A stretch of 32,000 nt of DNA from Candidatus Kuenenia stuttgartensis (GCF_900232105.1 NZ_LT934425.1:4374154-4406153); one strand, 5' to 3'; shown: positions 7,468 to 24,914, numbered from the stretch's first letter. Numbers and translations: made by a program. The notes: a model not told the origin generated them from the letters alone.

Positions 7468-7533
7468 CTATTCGGAGTAAACACTACGGTCTAACATGAT
7501 AGCATCAGGCGCTTATCACATCACATCCTTTGT

Positions 7534-7593
7534 TGCCCAATGGCGCCCATCAGCCGCAACGCTTTTTGGCGTCGGCTGGATGGGATTGTTAGT
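7534..7593 (-). other. attC-like recombination site A (60 bp)
   Basis: On the minus strand: GACTAAC, a bulged stem (cccatccagccgacgc / gcgttgcggctgatggg), then ATTGGGC. It begins 10 nt after the stop of the DUF2283 gene. Confidence 0.55.
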
Positions 7594-7603
7594 CAATAAT
7601 TCC

Positions 7604-7873
7604 TCACGCCGCGTGTAGCGGCGCCAACTCTTTATTGCTGATTCTCGACAACCCAAGCTTTACCAATACACAGTTAATATCATCAGCAGTTACATTGGAT
7701 GGCGCCGTGATCTCAATACCTATAGGATTACCGCTTTCACCAAAATCAATAATTAGTCCCTGACCCGCCTTAGCAGTTTTACGGCTTTTCTCCCCTTGCT
7801 GACGTGGTAAATACAGATATGCAGCAAGTGGCTGACCGTGACGAAATGTTACTTCAAGATATGGCTCTTTCAT
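7604..7873 (-). CDS. DUF2283-family protein (putative antitoxin)
   Basis: 89 aa. The segment GLIIDFGESGNPIGIEI is typical of DUF2283. Separated by 1 nt from the upstream DUF4258 gene. Confidence 0.7.
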   Translation of the reverse strand: MKEPYLEVTFRHGQPLAAYLYLPRQQGEKSRKTAKAGQGLIIDFGESGNPIGIEITAPSNVTADDINCVLVKLGLSRISNKELAPLHAA

Positions 7874-7874
7874 T

Positions 7875-8147
7875 TCATTCCTCCCAAACTGGATATGCAG
7901 TAATGACTACGAGTAAATTCGAAGTACTATCTGGTTCAACAATAACTTCCCAGGGATGTTGCAAGTGATGTGTCGTAATAATCCAACGTCCTTCTATTAT
8001 GTCCTGGTGATACGATTTCGCATGATGTAACATCTTTCTCAGATCAATCTCATTAAATTGACGATCAATCATACGTTTTAGCACATGTGGGCATAGCTCC
8101 AATTCCCAATCCCACCAATTTGGCCATTGATTTTTCTTCAAATTCAA
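7875..8147 (-). CDS. DUF4258-family protein (putative toxin)
   Basis: 90 aa with a TTG start. HVLKRMIDRQFNEIDL is a DUF4258-like motif. The two genes form an operon. Confidence 0.65.
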   Translation of the reverse strand: MNLKKNQWPNWWDWELELCPHVLKRMIDRQFNEIDLRKMLHHAKSYHQDIIEGRWIITTHHLQHPWEVIVEPDSTSNLLVVITAYPVWEE

Positions 8148-8190
8148 TCGTTCTTTAAAAATTTTGCAATTCTTTGAGTTTTCTCTCTTA

Positions 8191-8311
8191 GGCTAACGAC
8201 CCAGCTCACTTGCCCGCCGGTCACGACCGATAACATGGCCGAAGTTAATAAAGGTGACTTTGTTCAGAGACCCGCCGATGTTCGCGGGTCAAGTGCAGCC
8301 GCTGGTTAGCG
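8191..8311 (-). other. attC-like recombination site B (121 bp)
   Basis: On the minus strand: CGCTAAC, cagcggctgcacttgacccgc ... gcgggcaagtgagctgggtc, then GTTAGCC. The arms pair imperfectly and have extra bases. Confidence 0.6.
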
Positions 8312-8329
8312 ATTTTTATATGATTCTGT

Positions 8330-9019
8330 TCAGTCGTTTCCCATTTGCTTTTCTATGGAAGATAATGTTTTTTTGCTCTCTTCCATATCCGGATTGATTT
8401 CAATAGCTTTTTTCAGGTAATCAATTGCTTTACCTATATTTTGTTGGCGTAAAGCTGCAATACCTAAATTATGGAAGGCCCAAGCCTTATCTCTATTTGT
8501 CAGTTCAAGTTGAATAGATTTTAAAAGAAAACTTTCCCCTTCGGGCATATTCCCACGTTGAATATCAATTGTTCCCATTAGGAAATATGCCAAGCCGAAG
8601 TCAGGGATTTTTTTCATGAGACCCTCTGCTATTGCATAAGCTTCATCATATTTACCATCGTTAAAAAGGTTTCTCACGTTGCCAGCCGCCTCACTATATT
8701 CTGATAAATAAGAAACACCTTTACTTGCCGCAATCCTACCATCCGGAAGCAGTTTCGGTGAAGTAAGGCTAAGTTTGCCGACCTCAGCCTTTAACTCTTC
8801 AATTTTTTGATCTTTTTCTGTTACAGTCTTTTGATATTGATCAATTTTAACAAGAAGATCGTCATTGCTTTTAACAAGACCGTCGATCCTGGCATTCTTT
8901 TTCCCAATACTTTCCTGCAGTTGGGCCACATCAGCCTTAATACTAATATTTTGACCGACATAAGTAAGGATCGTGCCAACAGCTATAAATATGATCCCTA
9001 TTATTGTTATCAAATGCAT
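8330..9019 (-). CDS. Membrane-anchored coiled-coil/TPR protein (cassette cargo)
   Basis: N-terminal TM helix MHLITIIGIIFIAVGTILTYVG. Heptad-like stretch (DQYQKTVTEKDQKIEELKAEVGKL). TPR-like C-terminus (AWAFHNLGIAALRQQNIGKAIDYLKKAIEINP). Confidence 0.7.
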   Translation of the reverse strand: MHLITIIGIIFIAVGTILTYVGQNISIKADVAQLQESIGKKNARIDGLVKSNDDLLVKIDQYQKTVTEKDQKIEELKAEVGKLSLTSPKLLPDGRIAASKGVSYLSEYSEAAGNVRNLFNDGKYDEAYAIAEGLMKKIPDFGLAYFLMGTIDIQRGNMPEGESFLLKSIQLELTNRDKAWAFHNLGIAALRQQNIGKAIDYLKKAIEINPDMEESKKTLSSIEKQMGND

Positions 9020-9029
9020 GGATTTACCT

Positions 9030-9087
9030 CGCTAGCGTTTAAATCAGAGGCGCGGCTTTTTGCGTCCCCTGCATTTTTTTGTTGGGC
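9030..9087 (-). other. attC-like recombination site C (58 bp)
   Basis: On the minus strand: GCCCAAC (a perfect RYYYAAC), bulged stem atgcaggggacgc / gccgcgcctctgat, then TTTAAAC-GCTAGCG. It shares the core GACGC-AAAAA-GC...CTGAT with site A. Confidence 0.55.
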
Positions 9088-9088
9088 G

Positions 9089-10057
9089 CTAACTCCACCA
9101 AATCAAATCAGATGTTGAGTATTCTGCCCCCATTTCTTTACTTGGTGTATATGCCTGTAGGCACTCAAGTAGAGACTTTGAAACACCATTGCCATATGGG
9201 TTTGATATAAAAACTTTGGGAGGATATTCACCGTCCCGTCCATAATCTAAAGGTCTGTCACCTGCAGCCCTCATTAATTGGTGCAAATGTCTAATTAACA
9301 CAACCCCATCTACATTTGGAAATGTATTTTTATCTGGGTCAAAGGAGTTTGGAGTAAAAAGACCACTCTTCTCGTGGAGTAAAGCAGAAATGGGTTCGTA
9401 AATAAAATCATCCCAGACAACGACAAGGACTCCACTGAACTCAGGATTTTCTTCTTTGAAAGGCCTAAACTTACTCTCTGCACTTATAAGAAAATCCTTC
9501 AAAGGATTATCGCGAGGGTAAGTAATTCCTTTTTCGGCATCTGGTAACTGCTCAATTTCATCATTTGTGAAATTTCGAGCAGAGAGCTGGGTCGGGTTGC
9601 TTTGTAGAATTTTGATATGCGAAAGCAAGGACGGTGCTTTAACTTCAATACCAAATGTTTTGCTTCCTCCTTCAATGTTCAACTCTGGTTTTTTTTTACT
9701 TGTTTGGGTTGTTGGTTCCCACTGAAAAATTGCTTCAAACGGCCACTCGTATGTTAATAATTTATGGATAACATGAAGTTCTGAAATTCTTTGTAATAAC
9801 TGTTCGTAGTGTGACTCATATTTTTCTCGCCCAGAAATGGATGCTATTGCATCAATAAATCCCTTAGCAAAACCGGGTAGTTTTTTATTACAGTCTATAC
9901 ATGCATTGACAATTGATTGTGCAAATGGATGATCAGAACCCCTACGGCGATAATCAAAATGATATGCGTAGTAGTGCCAATTCGAAAAAATTTTTGATTC
10001 GAATATGTGTTGATACAAATCATCTTCGGTAAGGGTGTCTTTCATTGTTTGGTCCAT
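9089..10057 (-). CDS. Hypothetical protein, 322 aa (cassette cargo); possible PD-(D/E)xK-like motif
   Basis: Clean ORF. KPELNIEGGSKTFGIEVKAP has the spacing of a PE...ExK nuclease core. This is inference only. Confidence 0.6.
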   Translation of the reverse strand: MDQTMKDTLTEDDLYQHIFESKIFSNWHYYAYHFDYRRRGSDHPFAQSIVNACIDCNKKLPGFAKGFIDAIASISGREKYESHYEQLLQRISELHVIHKLLTYEWPFEAIFQWEPTTQTSKKKPELNIEGGSKTFGIEVKAPSLLSHIKILQSNPTQLSARNFTNDEIEQLPDAEKGITYPRDNPLKDFLISAESKFRPFKEENPEFSGVLVVVWDDFIYEPISALLHEKSGLFTPNSFDPDKNTFPNVDGVVLIRHLHQLMRAAGDRPLDYGRDGEYPPKVFISNPYGNGVSKSLLECLQAYTPSKEMGAEYSTSDLIWWS

Positions 10058-10203
10058 TTATTTGTATTTAAAACGCCCAACCATTGATTATCACAATCAA
10101 TTGCCCTGATAACTTGATAAAAGTACTATTATCAGGTAAAATTATTATGTAAAAAATTACCTTATAATTTTACTTCATAGACAATATAGCTTAGGAGAAA
10201 AAG

Positions 10204-10566
10204 ATGTCAATCAAAAAAGAGAAAAGGTTGCTCGATGAAGTGAAAGATATAATGAGGCTTAAGCATTATTCCATCCATACAGAACGATCATACTGTGATT
10301 GGATTAAACGATATATTCAAAATACCACCGAATGACCAGTAGAGAGGATTTAAAGGACAGTGAAGAAAAAATAGAGCAATTTTTGATCCACCTTGCCGTG
10401 AAATCTGGCGTTGCCCCTTCTACCCAGAACCAGGCTATGAACGCACTTGTATTTTTGTACAAGAAAGTTTTAAAAGTATCATTAAAAGAAGAGATTAATG
10501 CTATACGTGCACAGAAGAAGATGAATATTCCAGTAGTCAAACCGATGGAGTCAAACCTTATCTATT
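10204..10566 (+). pseudogene. IntI-type (integron integrase-like) tyrosine recombinase, N-terminal fragment #1
   Basis: MSIKKEKRLLDEVKDIMRLKHYSIHTERSYCDWIKRYI, then a frameshift near 10315, then EKIEQFLIHLAVKSGVAPSTQNQAMNALVFLYKKVL...IPVV. The catalytic domain is absent. It is cut at the left inverted repeat of the 10547..10809 element. Confidence 0.75.
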
Positions 10567-10809
10567 GACAAAAGAGTCGATAGCATAATCGCTCCGGATA
10601 GCTCTGTGAGGGACGATAGAAGGCAATTCTTGTTGAAAAGGATTCCTGTCTTTTAGGGCTTTCGCGTTATATCCACTTAAACCCTGTTAAGATTACTATG
10701 AAAAAGTGTTAAGGAATGTCAAGCCTGACAAAACAGAGCCATCAAAATCTTAAATGTATGATCGTTTTGGTGGAAAACACTTTATTGTCAATAGGTTAGG
10801 TTTGACCCC
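10547..10809. mobile_element. 263-bp element bounded by 25-bp inverted repeats (MITE-like, or an oversized attC)
   Basis: ggagtcaaaccttatctattgacaa (10547..10571) matches the reverse complement of 10785..10809 in 22/25 positions. No coding capacity. I did not recognise a target duplication. Confidence 0.5.
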
Positions 10810-10835
10810 GCGAATTCCTCAGACCACCGCAATGT

Positions 10836-11141
10836 TCACATTGCAGAAGTGTAAACATGCACCTCTTCATCAAGGCGATTCTTTAATCTATCTTTTTCTA
10901 TTTCAAGATCATATCTTGCTTGAAGATTTATCCAAAACCTTTCTGAAAGACCAAAAAACCTTGATAGTCTTAAAGCTGTATCTGGAGTTACAGAACGTTT
11001 GCCCTGAACAATCTCATTTATTCTGCGTGCAGGTACATTAATATCTTTAGCCAGCCGGTACTGACTAATACCCATGGGTTTGAGAAATTCTTCCATCAGA
11101 ATTTCACCTGGATGAATTGGATCTAATATCTTTTTTGCCAT
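10836..11141 (-). CDS. higA: HigA-family antitoxin (XRE HTH)
   Basis: IHPGEILMEEFLKPMGISQYRLAKDINVPARRINEIVQGKRSVTPDTALRLSRFFG is a typical HigA/VapI HTH. Confidence 0.9.
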   Translation of the reverse strand: MAKKILDPIHPGEILMEEFLKPMGISQYRLAKDINVPARRINEIVQGKRSVTPDTALRLSRFFGLSERFWINLQARYDLEIEKDRLKNRLDEEVHVYTSAM

Positions 11142-11150
11142 CGTTACCTC

Positions 11151-11432
11151 CTAATGATAATCTACTATTTCAACGTTGTAAGCATCTCCTCCACGCCATT
11201 CAAAACATATACGCCATTGATCATTAATACGGATACTATATTGCCCATTCCTATCTTTCGATAGTTTTTCAAGATGATTATTCGGTGGTATACGTAAATC
11301 CATCAGGATTTCAGCACCTTCAAGTATTTCAAGTTTTCTTCGGGCAGTTTTTTGTATATCCCGTGGAAGTTTGAGTGATATTCGACGATTGAATATTTTC
11401 TCTGTTTCTTTGCAAGCAAAGTTTTTTATCAT
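11151..11432 (-). CDS. higB: HigB-family toxin (RelE/ParE superfamily, plasmid-maintenance killer)
   Basis: 93 aa. [26 protein letters not shown] is typical of HigB. Lies upstream of higA. Confidence 0.9.
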
Positions 11433-11439
11433 TTATAAG

Positions 11440-11468
11440 ATAGTATTGCATCTCGTTAATAATGTCAA
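11440..11468 (-). promoter_or_regulatory. Sigma-70-type promoter internal to the higBA cassette
   Basis: On the minus strand: TTGACA, 17 nt, TACTAT. The -10 box ends 7 nt before the higB ATG, which implies a leaderless or near-leaderless mRNA. Confidence 0.5.
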
Positions 11469-11488
11469 ACGTTATTATCACTTCTTTA

Positions 11489-11547
11489 ACATAACGGGAA
11501 GTTCGGCGGCGCGGGTCAACGCGTCCGCGGTAACGCTTGGTTATAAC
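11489..11547 (-). other. attC-like recombination site D (59 bp)
   Basis: On the minus strand: GTTATAAC, bulged GC-rich stem caagcgttaccgcggacgcg / cgcgccgccgaacttccc, then GTTATGT. It starts directly after the stop of 11549..12370. Confidence 0.6.
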
Positions 11548-11548
11548 T

Positions 11549-12370
11549 TTAATATCTCATTTTTAAATATTCAGTTACTTGAAATTTCTTCATATATGGT
11601 TTTGACCTTATGTCATTCATTAATTCCCAATAACAATGTTTAGCAAAATCACCCTTTATTTCGTCTGGATATGTGTAGTGATACCTTTTAATATCTTTGC
11701 TTGGTTCATAAACTATGGGGCGGTGGAATTCTGGTTGAAGATACTCATAGATACCCCACCTTATATTATTGAGAAACTCAGCTATCGCACTGCTATGATA
11801 AGAAAAGATATCATCATGAAACCATTGATAAAATTCTTCAATAATAACCAGCGCGTTATCATCGCTTAAAGTAATTCCGTTTCTATTGAATATTGTTTGT
11901 AACTCTTTTACTACCCCCGAAAGGCGGCTGAAATTATGTTTTGAGATATTTCCACAAATTTTAATAAACTCGACTCTTTTTATAGATAAATTGGTTTCTA
12001 ATTCTATTGAAGGGAGCCATATTTTTTCCACAACAACTTCTATTGAAAGCCATTGCCTAAAATCGCTGACACAATTTTTAAGGTTTTCGATTGAGTTGTT
12101 TTGTTCAAATTTGGGTGAATCACAAACTGATTGGAGAGCACTAAGATAAGTTGATTGTTCACCTAATACCTTTTTATCAGAACACGAGAGGAAATCGACA
12201 AGAATGATATTGAAAAATTTTTTATGGGTCCTTGACGAAAATTGAAATTGAGAATAAGGATCATTTCCTATCACGTTCCCTATTTCAAAATTAACCATTT
12301 CATCAATAAGCTCTTTGACAGCCTTAATAATAATCACTTCGCGTTCAGTATCGGTAAATTTCATTTCCAT
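11549..12370 (-). CDS. Hypothetical protein, 273 aa (first cassette of the right-hand sub-array)
   Basis: Clean ORF flanked on both sides by GTTATAAC. I recognised no family. Confidence 0.65.
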   Translation of the reverse strand: MEMKFTDTEREVIIIKAVKELIDEMVNFEIGNVIGNDPYSQFQFSSRTHKKFFNIILVDFLSCSDKKVLGEQSTYLSALQSVCDSPKFEQNNSIENLKNCVSDFRQWLSIEVVVEKIWLPSIELETNLSIKRVEFIKICGNISKHNFSRLSGVVKELQTIFNRNGITLSDDNALVIIEEFYQWFHDDIFSYHSSAIAEFLNNIRWGIYEYLQPEFHRPIVYEPSKDIKRYHYTYPDEIKGDFAKHCYWELMNDIRSKPYMKKFQVTEYLKMRY

Positions 12371-12384
12371 ATGTTATAACATGA

Positions 12385-12434
12385 ATTAGCCGTACTAATA
12401 GCCGTCTTATAAGACGGCTATTAGTACGGCTAAT
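12385..12434. repeat. Perfect 50-bp palindrome built from ACGGCTAWT 9-mers (attI-like region)
   Basis: attagccgtactaatagccgtctta|taagacggctattagtacggctaat. A further direct copy of acggctatt lies at 12457..12465. The palindrome starts 4 nt after the GTTATAAC box at 12373..12380. Confidence 0.8.
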
Positions 12435-12575
12435 ATTTTCACCGGTGACTTATTATACGGCTATTCGGGCATATAATAACGTTCACGAATATTTTGCCGG
12501 TAATATATCTTAAATTATCTAAATACTGCAATATTTTTTTTCAAAGTAAAAATTACCTCTAAGTCTAAACCTACA

Positions 12576-12830
12576 TTACTTGATGAGGTGCATGATGCAA
12601 ACCGGGTAAAGCGCTATAGCATGGGAACAGAAAAGAGGTGTGTTAACGGGATTAAACGCTTTATCATTTTTCATGGAAAGCGGCATCCGTTACACATAGG
12701 AGAACATGGAGTCAGTAGATTTCTTTCTCGTCTTGCAATTAAGAAACAAGTGTCTGCTTTCACACAGAATCAGGCATGAAGCGTCATTGTATTTCTTTAT
12801 CAGGAAGCGCTTAAACAAGAACGCGGATAA
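12576..12830 (+). pseudogene. IntI-type tyrosine recombinase, N-terminal fragment #2
   Basis: LLDEVHDANRVKRYSMGTEKRCVNGIKRFIIFHGKRHPLHIGEHGVSRFLSRLAIKKQVSAFTQNQA, then an in-frame TGA, then SVIVFLYQEALKQE. It has no recognisable start codon and no catalytic domain. Confidence 0.75.
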
Positions 12831-13051
12831 GCTCTATTGTCTTGATACCGCTTCTGCAACATAGAGTTTTCTTGATATGATAACCTAAAAATAAGTCTCT
12901 TTTGTAGTACGAGTCAGGGAGAATGACTCCTTTGAGATAATCAAAAGAACATACACTAAGGATCTAAAACATCAACAGTGGTTTATGGAATTATATAACC
13001 ATTACCCTCTCGGGGGAGAGATACGTTTTCATTTTTCAACACAACTTCACA

Positions 13052-13219
13052 CTATTTATCCCTCCCACTTTTTTCTGATACCACAAAAGGAGGCATTGGA
13101 ATGTTTTTGATAACATCCGGCGATTCCCAATCATGTAACAAACTATCAAACATACACCTATTCTCGCCTCGAACATAATAAACACCTGGCGGCAAATAGC
13201 ACCCTTTATCCATACACAT
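13052..13219 (-). CDS. Small hypothetical protein, 55 aa
   Basis: GGAGG sits 6 nt upstream of the ATG at 13219. Translation: MCMDKGCYLPPGVYYVRGENRCMFDSLLHDWESPDVIKNIPMPPFVVSEKSGRDK. The longer ORF-track version has no RBS. Confidence 0.4.
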   Translation of the reverse strand: MCMDKGCYLPPGVYYVRGENRCMFDSLLHDWESPDVIKNIPMPPFVVSEKSGRDK

Positions 13220-13596
13220 CAGGTGCCTCCTTTCCGGAAAAAAGTGGTAAAAAGTAATGTGTTTCAATACCGGGCAAAAAACGCGCAGACGCGGGTACAC
13301 TGGTACAGAACAAGAAATGTTACGCTGTCTGCGCAAAAAAAGTCGGTAAAAGTTTGCCAGTGTACCTGGGTATCTTCTCTAAGAAACAATTCGATAAAGT
13401 AATTTGTTCTAATTCATAAAATTTTTTTAGAATTAACGAAAGCTAAATTTCCATCGCCATTCATTGTGAACAATTATAAGAATTCTCACGCCACCTTCTG
13501 TTATCCTATTTTTCTTTTTCTGACAATACTAATTCAAAAACAATGTAATGCAAGATGAATAGTTGTCAAAATTCAAGTTTTTTTAACACGATACCT

Positions 13597-14178
13597 TTAG
13601 AAATTTATTTTGGTTTTGGAAACCAGAATTAAAATGGACATGCCATAAGCGCACAAATTAATGGCCAAGACCAAGGCCATGTAAAGCATTCCTGCCAGCG
13701 GGAAAAAAACAAAAACTAAAACACCCATGATCAGAGTAACAATCCCGGCGATCAGCATCCAACCCCAGCGTGGAGAAGGGCGGAATGCAAAGGCCATAAC
13801 GATTTCAAGCGAACCTTCCAAAAGGAGAAATACACCGATCAGGATACTGAGTCCCATAAGCCCTGCGGCAGGAAAAAGCAGCATTATTCCTCCCGCGATG
13901 ACAGAGAGGATACCGGATAACAGCAATAGCCAACGCTCACGCCGTTTAAAAAACGCAAAGACCTGAAAACCACCGCTCAACACCAACAAAATACCGACCA
14001 GAATATTGATGCCAAGCGCTGTCGCAAAAGGCAAAAACGCCGCTAATAATCCGGAGAGTAAAAAAACAATGCCTTCAAAGATATACCAACCCCGCTGTTT
14101 TGAGATTTCTTCCTTACGCCTTTGTTTCAAGGCTCCAAGGTCAATTTCTTCTTGTTTAAATTCGTAGAATACAAACAT
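13597..14178 (-). CDS. hdeD: HdeD/DUF308-family membrane protein
   Basis: Six glycine-rich TM helices (GILLVLSGGFQVFAFF, LLLEGSLEIVMAFAF). ATG at 14178 preceded by AAGGAG. The ORF-track extension to 14328 overlaps the end of the clp gene. Confidence 0.75.
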   Translation of the reverse strand: MFVFYEFKQEEIDLGALKQRRKEEISKQRGWYIFEGIVFLLSGLLAAFLPFATALGINILVGILLVLSGGFQVFAFFKRRERWLLLLSGILSVIAGGIMLLFPAAGLMGLSILIGVFLLLEGSLEIVMAFAFRPSPRWGWMLIAGIVTLIMGVLVFVFFPLAGMLYMALVLAINLCAYGMSILILVSKTKINF

Positions 14179-14206
14179 GTTTATCTCCTTTCTGTATTGA
14201 TAGAGG

Positions 14207-15961
14207 TTATCTCCTGAAACGGATTTCTTTTTCCCCTTGGATTTCTTCGCTGTTTTCTTGCCGGGTTTGCTTTTTTTCCATGACAACCTCTTTCTTTTTC
14301 TTGTCATAGGAGATAACAACGAAATCACCGGGCTTAAAACTTTGCCCCAGCATCTTTTCCGCCAGACCTGCTTCGACTTCTGAGCAAATGTAGCGCTTCA
14401 GCTCACGCGCACCAAATTCAGGTTTAAATCCGATATCAGACAGATAATCGATCAGGCTATCATTAAAGTCCAGCGTGATCTCCTGAGCATGGGCAAGGCG
14501 TTTAACCCGTTCCATCTGCAGGGCTATAATATCTCGAATCTGCTCTTTGCAGAGAGAGTGGAAGACAATGATCTCATCAATCCGGTTGAGAAATTCCGGA
14601 CGGAACCGATGTAGCAGCTCATCCATCAATCTTGATTTCAGATCATCATAGGAAAGCTGCTCCTTTTCTTCTTTTCGGGAATTTTCCTGAATGAGATGAG
14701 AACCGATATTACTTGTGGCGATAATAATCGTATTGGAAAAATCAACCATGCGTCCTTTTCCATCCGTTAAACGTCCGTCATCAAAGACCTGCAACAGGAT
14801 GTTGCAAACATCAGGGTGCGCTTTTTCAATCTCATCCAATAGCACTACAAAATAAGGGCGTCTGCGCACACGCTCGGTGAGTTGTCCCCCCTTCTTCATA
14901 ACCAACATAGCCTGGAGGGGAACCTATCATACGCGCCACGGCATGTTTTTCCATGTATTCAGACATATCAATACGCACCATGGCATCTTCATCGCCGAAT
15001 ACCATTTCAGCCAATGCCTTGGCAAGCTCAGTCTTACCGACACCCGTCGGACCCAAAAACAAGAAGCTGGCAATTGGTTTACTGACTTCACATAAATCGG
15101 CGCGAGACAGGCGCACGGCAAGGCTCACAGCTTTGACAGCCTCTTCCTGGCCGATGACACGCTCATGGAGTTTTTCTTCCATTCTCAGGAGTTTTTCCCG
15201 TTCTTCTGCCGTGAGATCACTGACCGGGATACCGGTCAAAGAGGATACGATTTCAGCAATATTCTGCATTGTAACAACCGGCGTTTCGCTGCTGCGGTTT
15301 GCTTGACATTCCTTATCCTGTTCATCGACATGCTTTTTTTTGACTTCAATATTGGCATGTATTCTTTGGCCTTCTCATAATCCTTTCGTGTATTTGCGGA
15401 CTTTTCCTCTCGTTCCAGGGCCTTGACTTCATTTTGCATCTTCAGAATTTCTGATGGGCGAGAAGTTGCGCGAATACGCACACAGGAAGCGGCCTGATCA
15501 AAAGGTCTATCGCCTTATCCGGCAGATAGCGATTTGTCACGTAACAATCGGACAATTCAGCCGCCGCTGCAATCGCCTCATCTGAAAGACTGACCTTCTC
15601 ATGCGCTTTTTCGCGCAGCTTTTTGCAAAATATCCTTGGCATCGTCACTCAGGTAATTGTCCAGGTCTACAGACTCGCGGTCACCAAGATTTTGGTGTGC
15701 ACGGTGGGAGATATCCGATGGCTCATGACCAATAACACTGTCGAAAGGATCTCGGCCACCAAAAAAAGTATCAAAAAGTGAACCGCCAAACATGGATTCA
15801 AGTGGTGAACGGAAACCACAGCCGCTGCGGCCACCCGCTCGATGCAGCAATTTCTGATAATGGTCATCGCAGAGCTCTCTGGTTTTACGAAGGCCGTTTT
15901 CAATAACTTTTGCACGATAGGCGGCTGGTGCACTGCAAACATCAAATCTTCCGTTGCCCAT
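14207..15961 (-). pseudogene. ClpK/ClpG-like AAA+ disaggregase remnant (internal deletion of N2/NBD1, at least 4 frameshifts)
   Basis: Five ORF pieces in different frames. They cover the N-terminal part (CSAPAAYRAKV...LCDDHY...SPLESMFGG), the D1-small domain ([36 protein letters not shown]), a linker, and NBD2 ([33 protein letters not shown]). Frame changes fall at 14886-14891 (C6), 15334-15341 (T8), about 15500 (A4) and 15607-15611 (T5). Confidence 0.7.
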
Positions 15962-16155
15962 AATATTAATCCTTTCTTTGTGTAGTATTAGAATTATCGG
16001 TCGAGTAGACGGCTTGAGTACGCCAGCCGTCTACTCGATCGAATTATCACATGTGCCGTTTACTCTTCTAACATATGTGGAATAATTTATTTGTCTTTTT
16101 GCCTTCTTTTGAAATATAAATATTTAACAAGCGATCATGTTTTTCAACCTTTATC

Positions 16156-16286
16156 TTAATCGGGATCGACATGTTCAGGTAATCTCATTGTACTTGTAAA
16201 AAACTGTGTAGCATCTTTAAACATACTATCAAGCGAACGCCGGTGCAAGTAAGGCATGTGCCCACCATGATATACTTTGAATTATA
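16156..16286 (-). pseudogene. 3' remnant of the S10 serine carboxypeptidase gene, separated by the IS
   Basis: The minus strand reads FKVYHGGHMPYLHRRSLDSMFKDATQFFTSTMRLPEHVDPD*. This supplies the catalytic-His motif (GGHM) missing from 17856..19388. Confidence 0.7.
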
Positions 16287-17855
16287 CCTAAATCCTGCAA
16301 ACGATTTTCGCAATGCGAAAAAGGGATGTACTGTCTCCATCTGCGGTATACTTACCACTCTCAAAAGACTAAAAAAACGAAATACAACGTCGGTTTTCTA
16401 CTGAAAAACTACATCCAGTGACATGCGTTCCCACTTTTCCCATTCCTCCTGATGGAGAAATTTCTCCGGCAATTTTAATGTCATCTGCCGGCTTCTCTCC
16501 ACCAGTTTCCCTGCCACACGGATTAACCACAGTCTCATCGTCTTTACTTCCCACTGTTGTATCACTCCACCACTGAGCAATCCCATCCACTTCAAAAGAT
16601 TATACGCTAACACCGCACACTGAAATAGCGCAGCATTGGCCAAAAATTCACCCGTACGTATGTGCCCCGCATTCATCTGTCCTTTACTCTCTTCTATCAA
16701 AGTCTCGCAGGTAGCCCTCTTTCCATAACAACGATGCGCTTCCATCGGACTTAACCGCTCCGTTGTAACGTAACAAAAATACTCATACACGGACACTTCT
16801 ACTAATTTCTTTTCTCTTTTGACCAATTGCCGCACTGCCACAAAACGTCTCGCACGATCCCACCCTGCACATCGATACCAAAATTCAGCCTGTTCCCATC
16901 CTGGCTCCCCTTTCACCTCATTCCATTTCTGCCCTTCAAGCAATCCTTCCAGATTCTTCAGCTTTACCTTAATCAGATATCCCGCCAATATTGACTCAAG
17001 GTATTCAAGTAATTCTCCGGTAAAAAAACCGCTGTCTCCCCGAAATACCACCCTTACCCCCTTATTCATGTACGCCATACATTCCTTCATGAACTCTACT
17101 ACTCCGTTACTCGTGTAGGCGCTTCCACAGCGGAACCAACTATGTAATACCTCCTTTGTTTCTGCAATAAATGCCATTAAGGGATGATACGCCTTCTGCC
17201 CCTTCTTGTGCGGATTATATCCTACCTCTGCACCCTCCTGTTTCCCATATACACCATCTACGGTAGAATCAACATCTATCCATACTTCGCAAAGAGCACT
17301 CCTGAGTTTATGGCCTGATCTCACCGCACGCTTCCATATCTTTCCCCTAAACCGGTGGATCACCCCCGTCAGTTCCACTATATCTCCCTGACTCGCCAGC
17401 TTCATAATACGTCCTATCGTAGTATCTACAGGTACCTCTTTCCAACCGGACATCTTCTTCAATACCTCATCTGTACACACCTTCATCACCTCTACCATCG
17501 ATGTCGCCCCTGCTATCAACCCTATCACTACCATTTGTACCGCATCGACAAACTGATACCGGGCATTTGCTCCACGATCCTTATGGACCGCTTCATGGAC
17601 TCTCTCCCGGAACATCAGCTTACCCATAAATTCAATACCGGTAAAAGCCCTGCATGTACCGTTAAGCCTTTCCCGCTCATCTCTGCCTTGATTTTCGGTT
17701 GTCTTTTGCTGTATTTTTTTGCTATATTCTTCATCGAAATGGTGAATCTCCTTTCAGGTGTTTTTTGTTATCAATATACCGCCGAATACCTTGGAAATCC
17801 TACCATTTCAATCCTATTCCTGCAACAAGGCTTTGCCTTGTTTGCAGGATTTAGG
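16287..17855 (-). mobile_element. IS1380-family-like insertion sequence (1569 bp)
   Basis: 16-bp terminal inverted repeats CCTAAATCCTGCAAAC (16287..16302 and the reverse complement of 17840..17855). 5-bp direct target repeats TTATA at 16282..16286 and 17856..17860. One transposase ORF. Confidence 0.85.
16398..17627 (-). CDS. DDE transposase (IS1380/IS4-superfamily type)
   Basis: 409 aa. WIDVDSTVDGVYGKQEGAEVGYNPHKKGQKAYHPLMAF is a typical DDE N-terminal catalytic segment. A later segment reads FRGDSGF. Confidence 0.85.
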   Translation of the reverse strand: MGKLMFRERVHEAVHKDRGANARYQFVDAVQMVVIGLIAGATSMVEVMKVCTDEVLKKMSGWKEVPVDTTIGRIMKLASQGDIVELTGVIHRFRGKIWKRAVRSGHKLRSALCEVWIDVDSTVDGVYGKQEGAEVGYNPHKKGQKAYHPLMAFIAETKEVLHSWFRCGSAYTSNGVVEFMKECMAYMNKGVRVVFRGDSGFFTGELLEYLESILAGYLIKVKLKNLEGLLEGQKWNEVKGEPGWEQAEFWYRCAGWDRARRFVAVRQLVKREKKLVEVSVYEYFCYVTTERLSPMEAHRCYGKRATCETLIEESKGQMNAGHIRTGEFLANAALFQCAVLAYNLLKWMGLLSGGVIQQWEVKTMRLWLIRVAGKLVERSRQMTLKLPEKFLHQEEWEKWERMSLDVVFQ

Positions 17856-19388
17856 TTATATATTATCGCTAATCTCAGGATCCAGATCCATTTGCTTAAT
17901 CGTAATCCAGGTAGCATAATATGGAGTTACCAGATCAAATACACCATGAATGATTAATACCTGCATATGGGGATTTATGCACATTGCCTGCTTTAAGTCC
18001 GCTACAGCTTCGGCAAACCCTTGTTGCCCCTGAATACCCGACCACCAGTTCCACGATTTGAACACCTCCTCATTTAAGAGGAGATAGGGTAACTCAGTCT
18101 TAAAATCCAAATGGTCACGCACATAGGTATTGAAGGCTGCTGTTACTGGTGCATTGAGCCGGTCGAGATACGGATCGCCACCAGCAAGCATCTGTCTTGC
18201 AGGATCAGAATCGACAAGTTTAATCGACCCATCGTATAAACTCACCAAACGTCTCTGGTCTGACAATAAGGCTTTAGCGAAGCGAGCCGGTGGGACGCGT
18301 CCTGCCCAACGATGCAGGATGTCCGCATGTAATCCCATCATGTTGCTCGATTGCTCAATCCAATCCGGCAGCAAGTCACCACCGGCTAATCCGGTTAAAT
18401 ATTCTGATAAGGCGAAACGCTCCACTTCACCAAGCGAAACACGGGGGTTATCAGCTTTATACGTTATCATGTCACTGCGTTCATGGAATGCCGCCACTGC
18501 AGTGTAGCTCGGCAGCAAGGCCACCCAAGGCCACAGGCTTCGTTCGCTGCCCCAAAGCAACCCAAAATCAATCGCCGGAGAGATGAGTACCAACCCACTT
18601 GGCACAATGCCAAAATCTGACTGAAGCAGTTTTGATAAACGTGCGACCCTAAAACCGCCATAGCTTTCTCCGGCAAGAAAAATTGGCGAAAGCCAACGTT
18701 CCTCCTTGGTCAGATAAGTGCGAATAAAGCGGGCCAGAGAGTCGGTATCTTCCACCACGCCCCAGGCGTATTTACCTATCGATTTTTCCTTCGAAGGTCT
18801 CAACTTCCGCCCTTTATTGTTTTCGGTGTCATCCTTAATCTCACGACTGTAACCCGTTCCAACAGGATCTACAAAGACCAGATCCGTAAACGATAGCCAA
18901 CTCTTTGAATTATCGAGTAATCGGGCTGGCATATGGAGTACCTTTCCATCGTCACTGAACTCGACGCGTTTTGGACCTAAAGCTCCCATGTGCAGATATG
19001 CCGAGGCAGCACCTGGACCACCGTTGAAAACAAAGGTCACCGGCCGTGGGTAATCATGTTGTTCGTCAGCGGTATAACTGATATAAAAAATCCTGCTGAC
19101 TGGCTTTGCCTCCTTATCCGTTATGGTCAGCGATGCTGCGGTGGCAAAATACTCCAGTGTTTTATCCGCTGTCGTCAGAGTATGTTGGGTAACGGCCCTG
19201 TTCGATGCGTCAAGAACACGCTCTTCGGCCTGCTGTTTTTCCACCTCAACCTTCTTGTTGTCTGGCACACCCAATACAATAGACGTATACATAAAGCAAA
19301 CACAAATCAGCGTAAAGGCTGATATTGTGAATCGATTAGTGCTTCCTAATGTGTTAAACATTTTTAACCTTGTTCTAATGTAATCCAT
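17856..19388 (-). pseudogene. Peptidase S10 (serine carboxypeptidase), 5' part truncated by the IS insertion
   Basis: Signal/TM N-terminus, RPVTFVFNGGPGAASAYLHMGALGP, active-site LAGESYGG, and GVFDLVTP (Asp). The ORF ends inside the IS target duplication, before the catalytic His. Confidence 0.8.
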
Positions 19389-19442
19389 GGAAAAAGGCAG
19401 TCAAATCGACCGATCTTTTGAAATGGCATGATTCGGTAAAAC

Positions 19443-21111
19443 TTACCAACTTAACACCACATACTGCTGCGCATTGCCTCTCCGAAGGAGCAGCAGTATA
19501 CTTTTATCATCGCTGCTCTTCTCGACCGCACGCTTGAACTCGGCAGCATTTTTCACGGGTTCGCGATCCACCTGCATAATCACAGTGCCAGGCTCAATGC
19601 CTGCCATTGCAGCAATAGATCCTGGTCTGACTTCCGTGACCACAACACCTTCCCCCATTTTGACTCCAAATTGTTCAGCCAACTGCGGGGTTAGCGTTTG
19701 TACCGTCAGACCAAGTTTCTCGGCGCTTTGCGACGAAGTCTGTGCAGCCAGTTTTTCTCTGGTGAGCTTGCCGATTGTCACAGTAAGCGTCATTTGTTTT
19801 CCTTCCCTCAGGATAGTCAACTCTTCCGTGCTGCCCGGCTGAGTGAGTGACACTCTGTTACGGAAACTGCCGACATTTGTTACCGGTTCCCCGCGATATG
19901 CAATGATTATATCCCCTTGACGCAACCCTGCCATATCAGCCGGTGAATCGTCTGAAACCTGAGAGACAAGTATACCCTTGACCTGTTCAACACCGAACGA
20001 CTTTGCAAGATCAGCGGTAAGCGGTTGAATCACAATACCAAGGTAACCACGCGTTACTTCTCCTTTATCGATCAACTGATCGGCGATCTCCCTGGCAAGA
20101 TTGATAGGAATCGCAAATCCCACACCCATATATCCGCCACTGCGGCTGAAGATGGCGGTATTGATGCCTACCACCTCAGCATCCAGATTGACCAGTGGAC
20201 CACCAGAGTTACCGGGATTAATCGCTGCATCTGTCTGGATGAAATCTTCATAATCGTTAATACCAATACTCGTACGCCCCTTGGCGCTCACCACACCTAC
20301 GGTGAGGGTATGACTCAGTCCAAATGGGTTGCCAATGGCAACAACCCACTCCCCAACCTCCAGCTTGGAGGAATCACCCAGTTTTGCCGCCGGCATACTG
20401 CTAGCCTTGATTTCTATAACCGCCACGTCTGACTGGGGGGTCCCGACCTGTAATTTTAGCGTTATATTCAGAACCATTCTGGAATTGCACCCGGATAGTA
20501 TCAGCATTTTCCACAACGTGATTATTAGTAAGGATGTATGTTTTGTCAGACAGCAATCCGTCCTTTACCTCGAACACAAATCCGGAACCCTGTCCAATAA
20601 TACGGTGTTCACTTTGAGGTTTATCAGAAGGCGGTGTCCGAGGAATACCGGGGAATGGTTCACCAAAGAAACGTTTGAAAAACTCATCCCCAAAGGGCCA
20701 TGAATCGCCAAAGGGTAACCGAAACCGTGTTCTCGCCGAATCAGATACTTTCGATTCAACCTGTATCATTACTTTGTTAAAATAATATGCAAAACAACCT
20801 TAATTCCCTCTATTTAAAAGGATTTATGCTTTGAAAAATCCTTGATTAATACCATACAATAAGTAGGATGCCGAACGCAAAGGCATACAAAATATATCAC
20901 TTTATGAACGGTTTCAGTGGTTTTTAACAAAGTAATGCTGTATGAAAACCACAGATGGCGATACTTCCCGTGCCACAGATGCAAAGGCCTTACCGGTCTG
21001 GCGCAGGTCTTTAATACCGTTGTCTTCTAATGCATAGGCTGGCATTACACTAAAACAGAAAAGCGTTACGTGCAGCATCATTAATTTTATCTTCCTCGTA
21101 TTCTCCTGCAT
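19443..21111 (-). pseudogene. htrA: HtrA/DegP serine protease with two PDZ domains, disrupted
   Basis: Three pieces: signal peptide plus SPSVVFIQ (20914..21111); GSGFVF...ILTNNHVV (20401..20769); GNSGGPL plus 2 PDZ domains (19443..20516). They are interrupted by the 171-bp MITE and by a +1 frameshift in the G6 run at 20435..20440. Confidence 0.85.
20767..20937. mobile_element. 171-bp MITE inserted in htrA
   Basis: Perfect 16-bp terminal inverted repeats: cattactttgttaaaa (20767..20782) and ttttaacaaagtaatg (20922..20937). 6-bp direct repeats ctgtat at 20761..20766 and 20938..20943. Removing the element restores ...SPSVVFIQVESKVSD... in frame. Confidence 0.85.
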
Positions 21112-21218
21112 CCTTAATTTCTATTGCTACCGTTGCCGATCTTAATCAGTTTAAAAACTAATCTTGCAAACCTCTCTTTACATAAATTGTCTCCTCTTGC
21201 CCATAAATTTCGCCTATC

Positions 21219-21265
21219 ATGGAGGCGCTGTCATTACATAAAAATGCTCCAATAAGCGCCTCCAT
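21219..21265 (-). terminator. Hairpin downstream of the hsp20 gene at 21283..21789
   Basis: Perfect 11-bp stem atggaggcgct / agcgcctccat with a 25-nt loop. No clear U-tract. Confidence 0.4.
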
Positions 21266-21282
21266 AATAACCAACAACAACA

Positions 21283-21789
21283 TCATTCTCCCTTTATTTC
21301 AATCTTACGCACATTTTCCTGCGCTTTTCCACTCTTAGGCAGATTGATTTTCAACACCCCTTTTTTGAACGAAGCCTTCACTTTTTCCTGGTCAACTTCA
21401 CAGGGAAGTTGCAGAGAACGGTAAAAGGATCCGTAACTTCGCTCTACATGATAGTACTCTTTGTCCTTTTCTTCCTTTTCCTGTTTCTTCTCCCCTTTAA
21501 TAGTGAGCACATCGTCTCTTAAAGTAATTTCAACATCATTTTGATCCATTCCCGGCACTTCTGCGATAATCTCAATTTCTTTGTCATTTTCACTTACATC
21601 TATCTTCGGTGAAAACTCGGCGAATCGCTCTTCCTTTAATGGGAGGGACGGGAATCTGTCAAACCCTCTGAAGAAATCGTCAAATAATCGGTCCACTTCT
21701 CTCTGAAGGGTCGCTACAGGGTGTTGCAGTCCTGATAGTGCAGGCTGCTGTTTTCTTCTATTCCAGGTTATTAAATCTTTCAAGGCCAT
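21283..21789 (-). CDS. Hsp20/alpha-crystallin small heat-shock protein
   Basis: The alpha-crystallin domain reads IDVSENDKEIEIIAEVPGMDQNDVEITLRDDVLTIKGEK...SFKKGVLKINLPK. Confidence 0.9.
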   Translation of the reverse strand: MALKDLITWNRRKQQPALSGLQHPVATLQREVDRLFDDFFRGFDRFPSLPLKEERFAEFSPKIDVSENDKEIEIIAEVPGMDQNDVEITLRDDVLTIKGEKKQEKEEKDKEYYHVERSYGSFYRSLQLPCEVDQEKVKASFKKGVLKINLPKSGKAQENVRKIEIKGE

Positions 21790-21913
21790 GGTCGACCTCC
21801 TTTCTTATCAATTAAATGTTACATGAATGTACAAAACTTTTTTCTGCATGGTACAATAAAAATCTGAAACAGTCGGGGGAAACAGGACCTTGCAGTTCCT
21901 CACATATCAACCA

Positions 21914-22951
21914 TTATTTCTTTCTCTCCTGAGTTTGCTCAGTCTTCTCTTCAGTGTGAGCTTGACCGGTTTCTTTGCTAAACAAATTGACTGCCCGCTC
22001 CCAGAACTTGCGAATCTTAGATGCCGCTCCTTTTTCTTCAATCTTTGTCGTCAGCTTGGTGATATCATCCTCAAGCTGTTTCACAATTTTCTTAGCCTCC
22101 TCGTCTTCCAGCAGTGCTCGGTATGTTCCCAACTGGATTTGAGCCAGTCTCAAGTTGTCCTGTGCAGCTTCGTGCTTACCCTCTTCAACCATGCGCTCAG
22201 CCAGCCTTAACGCATGCTGTACTTCTACAAGCGGATTGTCTACCTCATGGAAAACGAGCTTTACACCTTTCGTCTGCGCAAGGGCCAACTGGACCAGTGC
22301 TTCGTCCGGCTTTCCCTTGTCCAATAAAGACTCTGTATGGTTCAATTTTCGCTCAATATAGCTGAGGTCTACAAGCACAGATGTATAAATGACATCAACA
22401 TCTGCAAGTCGCAGTCCTTTAAGTGCCGCCTCCTTCTCCTTGGCGTCAATGATCGGTTCTACAATTTCCATAGCGATAGTGCCCTCATATAAGGCAATCT
22501 TGTCGTCCTGGACCTTGTCAACCTCCCGATAAACCACTTTACCGCTGACATCTTTCACCGATGTCGTCACCGTAGTAACGGGGAGTAATTCCCTCACAAC
22601 CTGCGTCAGCCTCTGAGCATTCTTGATCTCCGGTTTTGCAGCTTCGGGGTTCTGATCGATGAGACTTTTTGCTGCATTGTTCAGATGATTGACGATACGC
22701 GAAGTCAAGAGAGATGCTTGGTGCTTATCCTGCGCAGACAAAGCGCCTTCAGTGTACCGTTCTACGGTTGTCTGATAGCGTTTACCACTGCCAAACGTGA
22801 TGTATGATTGATCCCGCTGCTCTCCGCCACCCAATGCCTTTTCTGAGGCGATGACAGTCGCGCACATAAACAGAGAGAGAGCAATTAATGCAACCACACC
22901 AGAAATTACTGTACCTTTTCGATCATGAAAAAACTTACGAATTACGTTCAT
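21914..22951 (-). CDS. yfdX: YfdX-family periplasmic protein
   Basis: Signal anchor. LKGLRLADVDVIYTSVLVDLSYIERKLNHTESLLDKGKPDEALVQLALA aligns with E. coli YfdX ([44 protein letters not shown]) as I recall it. I prefer the ATG at 22951 because it has an AGGAGA RBS. Confidence 0.7.
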   Translation of the reverse strand: MNVIRKFFHDRKGTVISGVVALIALSLFMCATVIASEKALGGGEQRDQSYITFGSGKRYQTTVERYTEGALSAQDKHQASLLTSRIVNHLNNAAKSLIDQNPEAAKPEIKNAQRLTQVVRELLPVTTVTTSVKDVSGKVVYREVDKVQDDKIALYEGTIAMEIVEPIIDAKEKEAALKGLRLADVDVIYTSVLVDLSYIERKLNHTESLLDKGKPDEALVQLALAQTKGVKLVFHEVDNPLVEVQHALRLAERMVEEGKHEAAQDNLRLAQIQLGTYRALLEDEEAKKIVKQLEDDITKLTTKIEEKGAASKIRKFWERAVNLFSKETGQAHTEEKTEQTQERKK

Positions 22952-23119
22952 TTCTTTCCGTTTCTCCTTTCTCATACTAAAAAGTAATATATTATATTAC
23001 GACATTACGACATAATATTACGACAAAAAATCCTTCCGTATTCGTTAATACTCACAGGCTGTTTCTCATCTCACCTGGCGTTAACCGCTTCAATCAACCG
23101 TACGTCACGCCACTCTCTG

Positions 23120-23530
23120 TTATCCTATCTGAATCTTCTTTGGTTGTGCTTCCGGCGCCTTTGGCAGTGTCAGGGTCAATACACCGTCTGCCAGTTTTGC
23201 ATCAATTTTTCCCGTATCAATGATATTTGATACGGTAAATTTCCTGGTATAATGACCTACATTGTACTCGGTATACACCGGATTAAGATGTTCATACGGC
23301 GTAAAGTCTATTTTTGCATCAACCTCCAGGACATTATTTTCCAGCACGACATTTACATTTTCCTTTTTCACACCCGGGACATCCATGGTGACGACCAGAC
23401 TTTTATCGGTTTCAACGATATCCGTCATGGGAATATAATATTTGCCTTGCACCGTTTTCTCTCCCTTATATTCTGTTTTTTCCGGTTTCTGACTTTCAAC
23501 CGTTGCTACTTCCTTTGTTTCATTACTCAT
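23120..23530 (-). CDS. Hsp20/alpha-crystallin small heat-shock protein
   Basis: PMTDIVETDKSLVVTMDVPGVKKENVNVVLENNVLEVDA...KLADGVLTLTLPKA. Confidence 0.9.
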   Translation of the reverse strand: MSNETKEVATVESQKPEKTEYKGEKTVQGKYYIPMTDIVETDKSLVVTMDVPGVKKENVNVVLENNVLEVDAKIDFTPYEHLNPVYTEYNVGHYTRKFTVSNIIDTGKIDAKLADGVLTLTLPKAPEAQPKKIQIG

Positions 23531-23551
23531 ACCATCCTCCTTTCAGGGTTA

Positions 23552-23974
23552 TTATTGAATTGCAATACGTTTTGGTTTCTCTGACTCCGCACGGGGCAGA
23601 GAGATTACCAGAAGGCCATCTATATACTCTGCTCTGACCTGATCAGATTCTACGTTAACCGGTAGTCTCAATGTCCTGTCAAATTTGGATGCAGTACGCT
23701 CAATACGGTGGTAACTGACATTTTCGCCGTAGTCGATCCTGCGTTCTCCGGATAGCCGTAATATGTTGTTTTTTACCTCTATGTTCAGATCCTCCTTCTT
23801 TACCCCTGCTAATTCTGAAACGAGCACCAAATCGCCATCTTTTTCAAAAATATTCATCGGCGGATACACCCCTCTACTGGTCGTAGTATTCTCAAAAAAA
23901 CCCGTGTCGCGCGCCAGGTCCATTGCCTCCTGAAGCCCTAATAATGTTTCCAATGTCCTTGATAATGGTAACAT
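23552..23974 (-). CDS. Hsp20/alpha-crystallin small heat-shock protein
   Basis: PPMNIFEKDGDLVLVSELAGVKKEDLNIEVKNNILRLSGER...EYIDGLLVISLPRA. AAAGGAGGA RBS. Confidence 0.9.
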   Translation of the reverse strand: MLPLSRTLETLLGLQEAMDLARDTGFFENTTTSRGVYPPMNIFEKDGDLVLVSELAGVKKEDLNIEVKNNILRLSGERRIDYGENVSYHRIERTASKFDRTLRLPVNVESDQVRAEYIDGLLVISLPRAESEKPKRIAIQ

Positions 23975-24084
23975 GACAAATCCTCCTTTCAGTTTCAGAA
24001 AAAATCAAATTACTTGACACATCAAAAATAACTCAATACATTTATACAAGAAAACCGGTTTTTCCCTTTCTGACAATGCTTATC

Positions 24085-24794: not shown

Positions 24795-24914
24795 GGAATT
24801 CTATGTAGACCAATTAAGGTGCATATCAACCGTTTCAGAACCTACTCTGATAGAAAGGGTATGATCACTGGATGGATAGAAAATAAGAACCTTTACTATT
24901 TCAGATTACACAAA

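Follow-up and report, generated by a model that had tools for sequence, protein, structure and literature searches.

Candidatus Kuenenia stuttgartiensis very probably carries a decayed sedentary chromosomal integron with two dead integrase genes

We analysed a stretch of 32,000 nt from Candidatus Kuenenia stuttgartiensis (GCF_900232105.1 NZ_LT934425.1:4374154-4406153), which in its full length is called the window here, and found that the region between its nth-like and pyrC-like genes is very likely a decayed sedentary chromosomal integron. The element is a broken gene-capture system with four genuine attC sites, five cassettes, and two dead integrase genes, an unexceptional representative of a class of elements that is well known. 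The four attC sites lie within 4 kb, no open reading frame (ORF) with a catalytic domain was found, and both intI copies in the window are truncated and inactivated. Under the IntegronFinder definition, it falls into the class of clusters of attC sites lacking an integron-integrase (CALIN), here with intI pseudogenes on its flanks; since the integrases are dead and truncated, it is a degenerate integron and not a complete one. What is distinctive here is that two or three different intI remnants occur at one locus, together with an element resembling a miniature inverted-repeat transposable element (MITE) at the point where two integron units meet. A degenerate chromosomal integron had been proposed in a first-pass annotation made from the sequence alone, and our analysis supported this interpretation: each of the refuting observations that the annotation had named, checked in some form, came out in its favor.

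All substantial ORFs between 7.6 and 12.4 kb lie on the minus strand, in line with what the first-pass annotation had said of every ORF unit in this interval. Read along that strand, the order is intI fragment 2, a 50-bp palindrome, the putative crossover G|TTATAA, cassette A, attC_A, and cassette B (higB, higA), followed by a 263-bp element, intI fragment 1, the attI1 crossover G|TTGGGC, cassette C, and attC_C, and finally by cassette D, attC_D, cassette E, attC_E, a 46-nt vestige, and the nth-like gene (Table 1). This order would be that of two platforms lying head to tail, in which unit 1 would consist of intI fragment 1, attI1, cassettes C, D, and E, and a vestigial sixth cassette, and unit 2 of intI fragment 2, attI2, and cassettes A and B (higBA). 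The earlier suggestion that the intI/attI/cassette layout is present twice in tandem was thus right as to the two platforms and needs a qualification as to their relationship: the two integrase fragments share only about 45% amino acid identity, and the units are therefore not duplicates of each other. The integron structure is also wider than the 7534-12830 first noted, extending down to 7489 and up to 24794.

The attC sites were examined with a covariance model (R1) that contained no sequence from the window. Its sources were seven class 1 sites (dfrA1, estX, psp, aadA2, cmlA1, aadA1, and qacL, read from two plasmid arrays) and four sites from L001, the locus that carries the closest relative of intI fragment 1, and from L004, the corresponding locus of K. 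hertensis. Nearly 2,000 plasmids contain the aadA1 attC with 100% identity, placed immediately behind aadA1 in class 1 integrons, which confirmed this site. Full-length attC sites could not be aligned in register with MAFFT, and the seed model was made from length-normalised cores and later rebuilt from real matches. Two runs of R1 are needed, because the run with filters off misses the 121-nt site and the run with default filters misses 11489-11546. Together they matched exactly the four sites that had been proposed as imperfect palindromes, each on the minus strand and within 1 nt of the positions first given, with E-values between 5e-7 and 2e-3, and they returned no further site better than E=4 in the 32 kb (64 kb of searched strand). 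When R1 was applied to 84 loci encoding relatives of intI fragment 1, 53 sites came up, and 52 of these have intI on the other strand. A second model (R2) was built from these 53 sites, three of which are orthologues of window sites from Kuenenia sp. Bin_40, while attC_A had no orthologue in the training set. R2 confirmed the four sites and found no fifth in the window. In 687 kb of control loci it gave one match; this sole match (L059 19403-19459, 28.4 bits), in a Nitrospiraceae metagenome-assembled genome (MAG), may be a real isolated attC.

The sites follow the plan of attC: the R'' box (7 nt) and a spacer of 5 nt lead into 3 bp, a single bulged base, 6 bp, and a bulged A, after which come the stem, a spacer of 5-6 nt, and the R' box (7 nt), and both the box layout and the bulge columns are those of the aadA1 attC. 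In attC_E, for which the fold z-score was -3.9 to -4.3, the bulged bases are C7579 and A7572, which on the bottom strand are G and T. The L stems of the 53 related sites are 96-97% paired and show many compensatory changes, and stem covariation across these sites gave 87.7% of cells paired vs. 65.5% in shuffles. The outer four R''/R' positions are mostly unpaired across the same sites, as would be the case if the final six bases of R' were part of the following cassette. Two features of the palindromes as first described held only in part. The AAC and GTT boxes said to begin and end each palindrome are both found in two sites, whereas the R' boxes at 9030-9087 and 7535-7594 do not have GTT; and the distance from the preceding stop codon, given as about 10 nt, is 9, 18, 1, and 2 nt, so that one site lies farther away.

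The cassette rule, by which the first bases of a cassette should be the reverse complement of that cassette's own R'' box, was borne out. When the four variable R'' bases were compared with the start of their own cassette, they matched at all four positions for A, C, and D and at three of four for E (15/16 in total), vs. 2, 1, 3, and 2 of 4 (8/16) when the same bases were compared with the in-array R' of the same site. In the related arrays, 19 consecutive pairs gave 65/76 for the own start vs. 36/76 for the same-site R'. The chance of finding GTTGGGC in the attI1 zone was estimated from shuffles at p ~0.001, and that of the fixed-position matches of D and E at p ~4e-4 to 4e-3.

Both N-terminal IntI-like fragments reported in the first-pass annotation are real, and both are dead, as claimed. 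Fragment 1 contains a 2-bp (AA) frameshifting insertion near 10320, and its similarity to L001 is lost after 10539; fragment 2 is interrupted by an in-frame stop (12777-12779) and breaks off near 12830. The only families matched by the two fragments were those of integron-integrases (TIGR02249, NF011946); no Xer or phage-integrase family was matched by either at E<=0.01, and in Pfam the fragments were assigned only to a general SAM-like N-terminal domain. The L001 intI, once its frameshifts were repaired, scored 358.9 bits against TIGR02249 (cut-off 265) vs. 126 against XerD and 122 against XerC, a result that speaks for IntI over Xer. This repaired gene carries the ALERKY...W.W region, as does the relative of fragment 2 in L146. 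As judged from their identity of about 45%, the two fragments belong to different intI lineages. The relatives of fragment 2, in L146 and L147 (57% identity), are themselves intI genes, and upstream of them, on the opposite strand, lie three attC sites. Protein relatives of the 116-residue query were all <=203 residues long, which looks like a length limit of the search and not like biology.

Interruption is not confined to the window copies. The intI of L001 (10001-11100) has several frameshifts and stops and that of L146 (2219-3174) one in-frame stop; most relatives of fragment 1 are intact, and across 50 such intI genes the frame is open for at least 290 codons in 40 and interrupted in the other 10 (metagenomic), and some of these interruptions may be assembly errors. 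A third intI piece lies far from the other two, in a chimeric ORF (24399-24794) that ends 25 nt before the pyrC-like gene and in which a PAS domain (residues 36-109) is fused in frame to a C-terminal intI remnant. From its match to TIGR02249 (Table 1), we conclude that an intI 3' end still lies beside pyrC. A link of this remnant to fragment 1 or 2 was sought by DNA comparison with L001 and by a short tblastn search, neither of which gave a match.

Comparison with relatives gave cassette differences with defined boundaries, as had been predicted. L001 is 93% identical in DNA to window positions 10079-10539, from inside intI to the attI G|TT, and beyond this point the two loci have different first cassettes; at the start of the shared identity, the window reads GTTGGGC and L001 reads GTTAGAC. 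Along with its full-length intI pseudogene, L001 carries four other cassettes past attI, for which the rule held at 7/7, 6/7, 7/7, and 7/7 positions. (L062 was considered as a third attI junction, but it diverges about 45 bp before GTT and gives no clear-cut test.) Across the whole region, identity with two other K. stuttgartiensis assemblies is 99-100%, and the array has the same order and content in all three strains. In Kuenenia sp. Bin_40 (L002), identity is 97% from the flank, over cassettes E, D, and C, as far as codon 5 of intI1, and the contig ends shortly after this point. K. hertensis shares the nth flank up to window position 7560 and resumes at 24884, and has in between a single different cassette that starts with G|TTAGAT, has R'' ATCTAAC (rule 7/7), and ends with GTTGGGC-AAC where the window has ATTGGGC-AAC. 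The MAG L003 has a third cassette variant at this locus, and in about 20 genomes of Brocadia and related organisms 90-480 bp separate nth from pyrC, without any attC. The integron therefore occupies a fixed locus in Kuenenia, at which the cassettes vary between species and are fixed within K. stuttgartiensis.

Table 1. Features of the integron region, in window coordinates; R1 and R2 are the two attC covariance models.
Feature	Position	Strand	Details
Putative vestigial sixth cassette	7489-7540	minus	begins TTGGGCAAC (last six bases of attC_E R'); end resembles an attC 3' half (GCGCCTGATG-CTATCAT-GTTAGAC)
attC_E	7535-7594	minus	60 nt; R'' GACTAAC, R' ATTGGGC (G to A; K. hertensis GTTGGGC); R1 27.0 bits, E=6e-5; R2 40.5 bits
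Cassette E	7604-8147	minus	DUF4258 gene 7875-8147 (PF14076) and DUF2283 gene 7604-7873 (PF10049), toxin-antitoxin-like pair
attC_D	8191-8311	minus	121 nt; R'' CGCTAAC, R' GTTAGCC; R1 34.6 bits, E=4.6e-7; R2 52.2 bits
Cassette D	8330-9019	minus	tetratricopeptide repeat (TPR) protein (Pfam TPR families), N-terminal hydrophobic segment, coiled coil
attC_C	9030-9087	minus	58 nt; R'' GCCCAAC, R' GCTAGCG (GTT to GCT); R1 21.7 bits, E=1.8e-3; R2 37.1 bits
Cassette C	9089-10057	minus	322-residue protein, uncharacterised family
attI1 region	10058-10203	minus	crossover G|TTGGGC 10081-10075; 93% identity to L001 starts exactly at GTT
Pc-like promoter	10183-10210	minus	TTGACA-16-TATATT; overlaps intI1 start codon, points into cassettes; 11/12, best consensus match in region
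intI fragment 1	10204-10539	plus	codons 1 to ~112; TIGR02249 positions 1-102 of 315
MITE-like element	10547-10809		263 bp, non-coding, 31-nt imperfect terminal inverted repeats, once in window
Cassette B	10836-11488	minus	higB 11151-11432, higA 10836-11141 (PF05015, TIGR02607); starts G|TTATGT
attC_A	11489-11546	minus	58 nt; R'' TTATAAC, R' GTTATGT; R1 23.6 bits, E=5e-4; R2 31.7 bits, E=1.6e-6
Cassette A	11549-12370	minus	273-residue protein, uncharacterised family
Putative attI2 crossover G|TTATAA	12374-12380	minus	7/7 match to reverse complement of attC_A R''
Palindrome	12385-12465		perfect 50-bp palindrome 12385-12434 and third partial arm 12449-12465; repeated motif TAGCCGT, inside attI2
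intI fragment 2	12561-12830 (about)	plus	~90 N-terminal codons; TIGR02249 positions 9-67 of 315, up to stop
intI C-terminal remnant	24711-24794	plus	RTTMIYTHTIKIQTIKEVKSPLDF; 26 residues; TIGR02249 positions 289-313 of 315, E=0.003

The cargo assignments made in the first-pass annotation, a higBA pair and a DUF4258/DUF2283 pair, both hold, and the last cassette of L003 likewise has a divergent DUF2283 gene with a candidate DUF4258 partner. The proteins of cassettes A and C had no match in Pfam, NCBIfam, or PADLOC. For that of cassette A, the family comprises 489 cluster representatives (E<=0.001) in a library of 1.8 billion proteins. The family of the cassette C protein, of about 325 residues, has a patchy distribution over cyanobacteria, Desulfobulbaceae, Elusimicrobia, Bacteroidota, and the archaeon Methanococcoides, and in its closest homologue, from another metagenome, the gene starts 34 nt after an attC. 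The predicted structure of the cassette C protein (AlphaFold2, pLDDT 90.5) gave weak matches to the PD-(D/E)xK nuclease fold, with which the invariant E124 and E137-x-K139 are consistent, and the protein may have a PD-(D/E)xK nuclease core. Cassette B has a promoter-like site at 11468-11440 and is defined by its start alone, because no attC follows higBA. The 26 nt after the higA stop were considered as the 5' half of an attC_B; this agrees with the first four bases (ACAT) but not with the conserved columns, and no match to the model was obtained. One K. stuttgartiensis MAG (L145, positions 7481 and 8036) does not have 42 bp (window 10793-10834) and 38 bp (11391-11428); the first gap spans the right inverted repeat of the MITE-like element and the spacer before higA, the second lies inside higB, and either gap could be a real microdeletion or an assembly artefact.

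Beyond attC_E, the 46 nt that lead to GTTAGAC (7495-7489) have the appearance of a cassette start joined to an attC 3' half. This stretch is conserved in K. hertensis and absent in L003, where the last attC abuts a GTAGAC box directly. We take it for a probable cassette remnant, and GTTAGAC, about 20 nt from the nth-like stop codon, is likely to be the original end of the array. At the other end of unit 1, L001 has TTGACA-16-TATAAT at the position of the Pc-like promoter. The 50-bp palindrome, 4 nt away from the putative attI2 crossover, has no second copy in the window and is conserved in the two other strains; from its sequence it looks like a terminator on both strands, and it could be a bidirectional terminator, a foldback insertion, or a set of integrase-binding repeats.

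The two units meet at the MITE-like element, which fills the junction between the truncated intI1 and the higBA cassette, where attC_B would be expected. The same element end (GGGGTCAAA(A)CC, repeated) is present in Bin_40 (L002 13433-13591), where it is joined to codon 5 of intI1 vs. codon ~112 in the window; that one end should meet intI1 at different points in two genomes suggests element-associated deletions or independent insertions. A short internal stretch of the element translates to SRYIHLNPV, which we take to be a motif of Y1 (IS200/RayT-like) transposases. On the far side of unit 2, about 12 kb (12831-24710) with stress genes and an insertion sequence (IS) transposase gene separate fragment 2 from the C-terminal intI remnant. 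This block encodes three Hsp20 proteins, YfdX, a broken DegP/HtrA, an S10 peptidase, an IS (DDE_Tnp_1_4) transposase, and a DUF308/HdeD-like protein, as well as frameshifted ClpB/ClpK-like pieces with 60-65% amino acid identity to plasmid Clp ATPases. It is absent at this locus in K. hertensis and Brocadia, and its gene set resembles the proteobacterial transmissible heat-resistance locus (tLST/LHR) in a decayed form.

The position of the MITE-like element at the junction and the missing attC_B lead us to regard a rearrangement by mobile elements as the most likely cause of the tandem layout; the fusion of the units and the loss of attC_B would both have come about through mobile-element activity. 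What such a rearrangement joined is a separate matter. Unit 2 and the 12-kb stress block may have arrived as one foreign segment inside a resident intI1, the alternative being that two resident integrons were fused. Arrival as one segment is possible, if on balance doubtful. It would account for the unbroken course of cassettes C-D-E from the ancestral array end, common to K. hertensis, to attI1 and fragment 1, for the absence of everything from 10540 to ~24710 in K. hertensis and Brocadia, and for the MITE-like end that lies exactly at the intI1 truncation in two genomes and at two positions, and the block contains an IS transposase gene of its own. However, the C-terminal remnant by pyrC is unlike the 3' end of the intI of L001, where fragment 1 has its closest relative, K. 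hertensis has yet another recombinase N-terminal scrap on the pyrC side, and neither a target-site duplication nor a second element end was found.

In an intact integron, IntI recombines the folded bottom strand of the attC of a circular cassette with attI at G|TT, and new promoterless cassettes stack beside attI, where they are read from the cassette promoter (Pc) at the intI/attI end. The array described here would have been built by past IntI-mediated capture at two attI sites, and the conserved Pc-like promoter (10210-10183) may still drive transcription of cassettes C to E. Without an integrase in cis, the array has no means of shuffling on its own, and it may be kept in part by the two cassettes of toxin-antitoxin type. 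The four intact attC sites could still serve as substrates for an IntI provided in trans. As a K. stuttgartiensis intI is included in a published intI phylogeny (PMC3607928), another copy of the gene may exist. In a rival reading, the array would be a working cassette reservoir and no frozen relic, in which an intact IntI encoded elsewhere in the genome excises and reinserts cassettes in trans. The full canonical anatomy and strong scores of the four attC sites speak for this, as do the longer intI copy elsewhere that the published phylogeny suggests and the accepted possibility that CALIN cassettes are mobilised in trans (PMC4889954). We nevertheless consider it unlikely: three K. stuttgartiensis assemblies have identical arrays, a relative of 97% identity has the same C-D-E, and in two R' boxes the crossover triplet is mutated (GCT, ATT). 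The statement in the first-pass annotation that the array would be frozen unless a functional IntI is encoded elsewhere holds to this extent, that is, within K. stuttgartiensis and this one relative, where its support ends.

A fuller scenario would combine several of these elements: platforms would have replaced each other serially at one site, leaving the remnants of three intI lineages between nth and pyrC across Kuenenia, a MITE-like element that targets attC or intI would have fused two of them, and the canonical attC sites would still be serviced in trans by a distant IntI encoded elsewhere. We think it rather improbable that all of this applies. It is hardly credible that one integron platform was recently duplicated in tandem to give the two units. 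Layout and orientation do agree between the units, and each integrase piece is N-terminal, but, besides the low identity of the fragments, the attI regions look unrelated by eye, the 50-bp palindrome is in attI2 only, no repeat joins the two units, and each fragment has its own relatives.

Several observations weigh against our reading of the region as a decayed integron, or against parts of it. Half of the attC sites (2/4) fold no better than shuffled sequence; the R' boxes of two of the four do not have a canonical GTT (GCTAGCG at 9030-9087 and ATTGGGC at 7535-7594); and the attC model is our own build and not that of IntegronFinder. The R2 search placed no attC after cassette B (higBA). The window fragments cover TIGR02249 positions 1-102, 9-67, and 289-313 only, so the IntI additional domain is missing from the window, and this domain is seen in the relatives alone; the C-terminal remnant, with no blastn match, is not orthologous to the 3' end of the L001 intI. 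The putative attI2 crossover is a 7-mer match (chance p ~0.06), the comparison with L001 covering attI1 only. The Pc-like promoter is a consensus match only, of a kind no commoner in the region than by chance.

On the strength of the two sites that fold no better than shuffles, of the lack of any match in Rfam, and of the general SAM-like N-terminal domain that is all Pfam gives for the fragments, one might hold that this is no integron, with the palindromes as terminators or repetitive extragenic palindromic (REP)-like repeats after convergent small genes and the recombinase pieces as Xer or phage integrase remnants; this is most improbable, given that an independent attC model matches all four sites and no others, that the cassette-rule complementarity is present, that the fragments match IntI families only, that the L001 junction falls at G|TT, and that related intI loci carry arrays of the same sites. 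The Rfam search, at gathering thresholds, gave no match in the window and carries little weight, as the presence of an attC family in Rfam was not checked.

As a decayed integron, the element resembles the sedentary chromosomal integrons, of which the Vibrio cholerae superintegron is the established example, in its fixed chromosomal locus, its divergent intI/attI/cassette layout, its cassettes of mostly unknown function together with toxin-antitoxin genes, its R''/L''/L'/R' boxes with bulged bases, and its content that varies between related species. Unlike the V. cholerae superintegron, it has four attC sites, five to six cassettes, no working integrase, and two different intI remnants in tandem, and in contrast to the homogeneous V. 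cholerae repeats (VCRs), its attC sites are heterogeneous and 58-121 nt long. The box layout and bulge positions are identical to those of class 1 attC sites (aadA1, aadA2, cmlA1, dfrA1, qacL, estX, and psp): attC_E (…CAT C CAG CCG A CGC…GCGGCTGATG…) is much like the cmlA1 and aadA1 sites, and attC_C has the same R'' as cmlA1 (GCCCAAC). Unlike class 1 integrons, the element has no resistance genes, has intI remnants of a different clade, and is not carried by a transposon or plasmid. IS1111-attC elements and group IIC-attC introns are mobile and use attC sites as insertion targets. The small mobile element found here where an attC is expected is reminiscent of them, but it is a 263-bp non-coding MITE-like element whose other side abuts the interior of intI1 and not an attC half.

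CALIN have been described as clusters of attC sites without an integron-integrase, some of them beside intI pseudogenes (Cury et al. 2016, PMC4889954). In that survey, intI pseudogenes were found near 15 of 279 CALIN and IS elements in a quarter of complete integrons, and pseudogenes were screened for with a C-terminal IntI profile and PF00589 at >50% coverage (PMC4889954). The remnants described here differ from those pseudogenes in being N-terminal scraps and in forming two or three separate pieces. As the screen is keyed to the C-terminal IntI profile and PF00589, N-terminal scraps like these would be missed, and CALIN screens of this design can miss such pseudogenes more generally.

No concept is changed by these findings, and the region shows that a degenerate integron can be correctly recognised from raw sequence alone. 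The integron remnant of an anammox planctomycete is documented here in more detail than in the literature that we found, where one intI within a phylogeny is all that is mentioned (PMC3607928). Together, the locus offers a further example of how sedentary integrons decay, in which the integrase is lost first and mobile elements invade, while toxin-antitoxin cassettes and intact attC sites persist.

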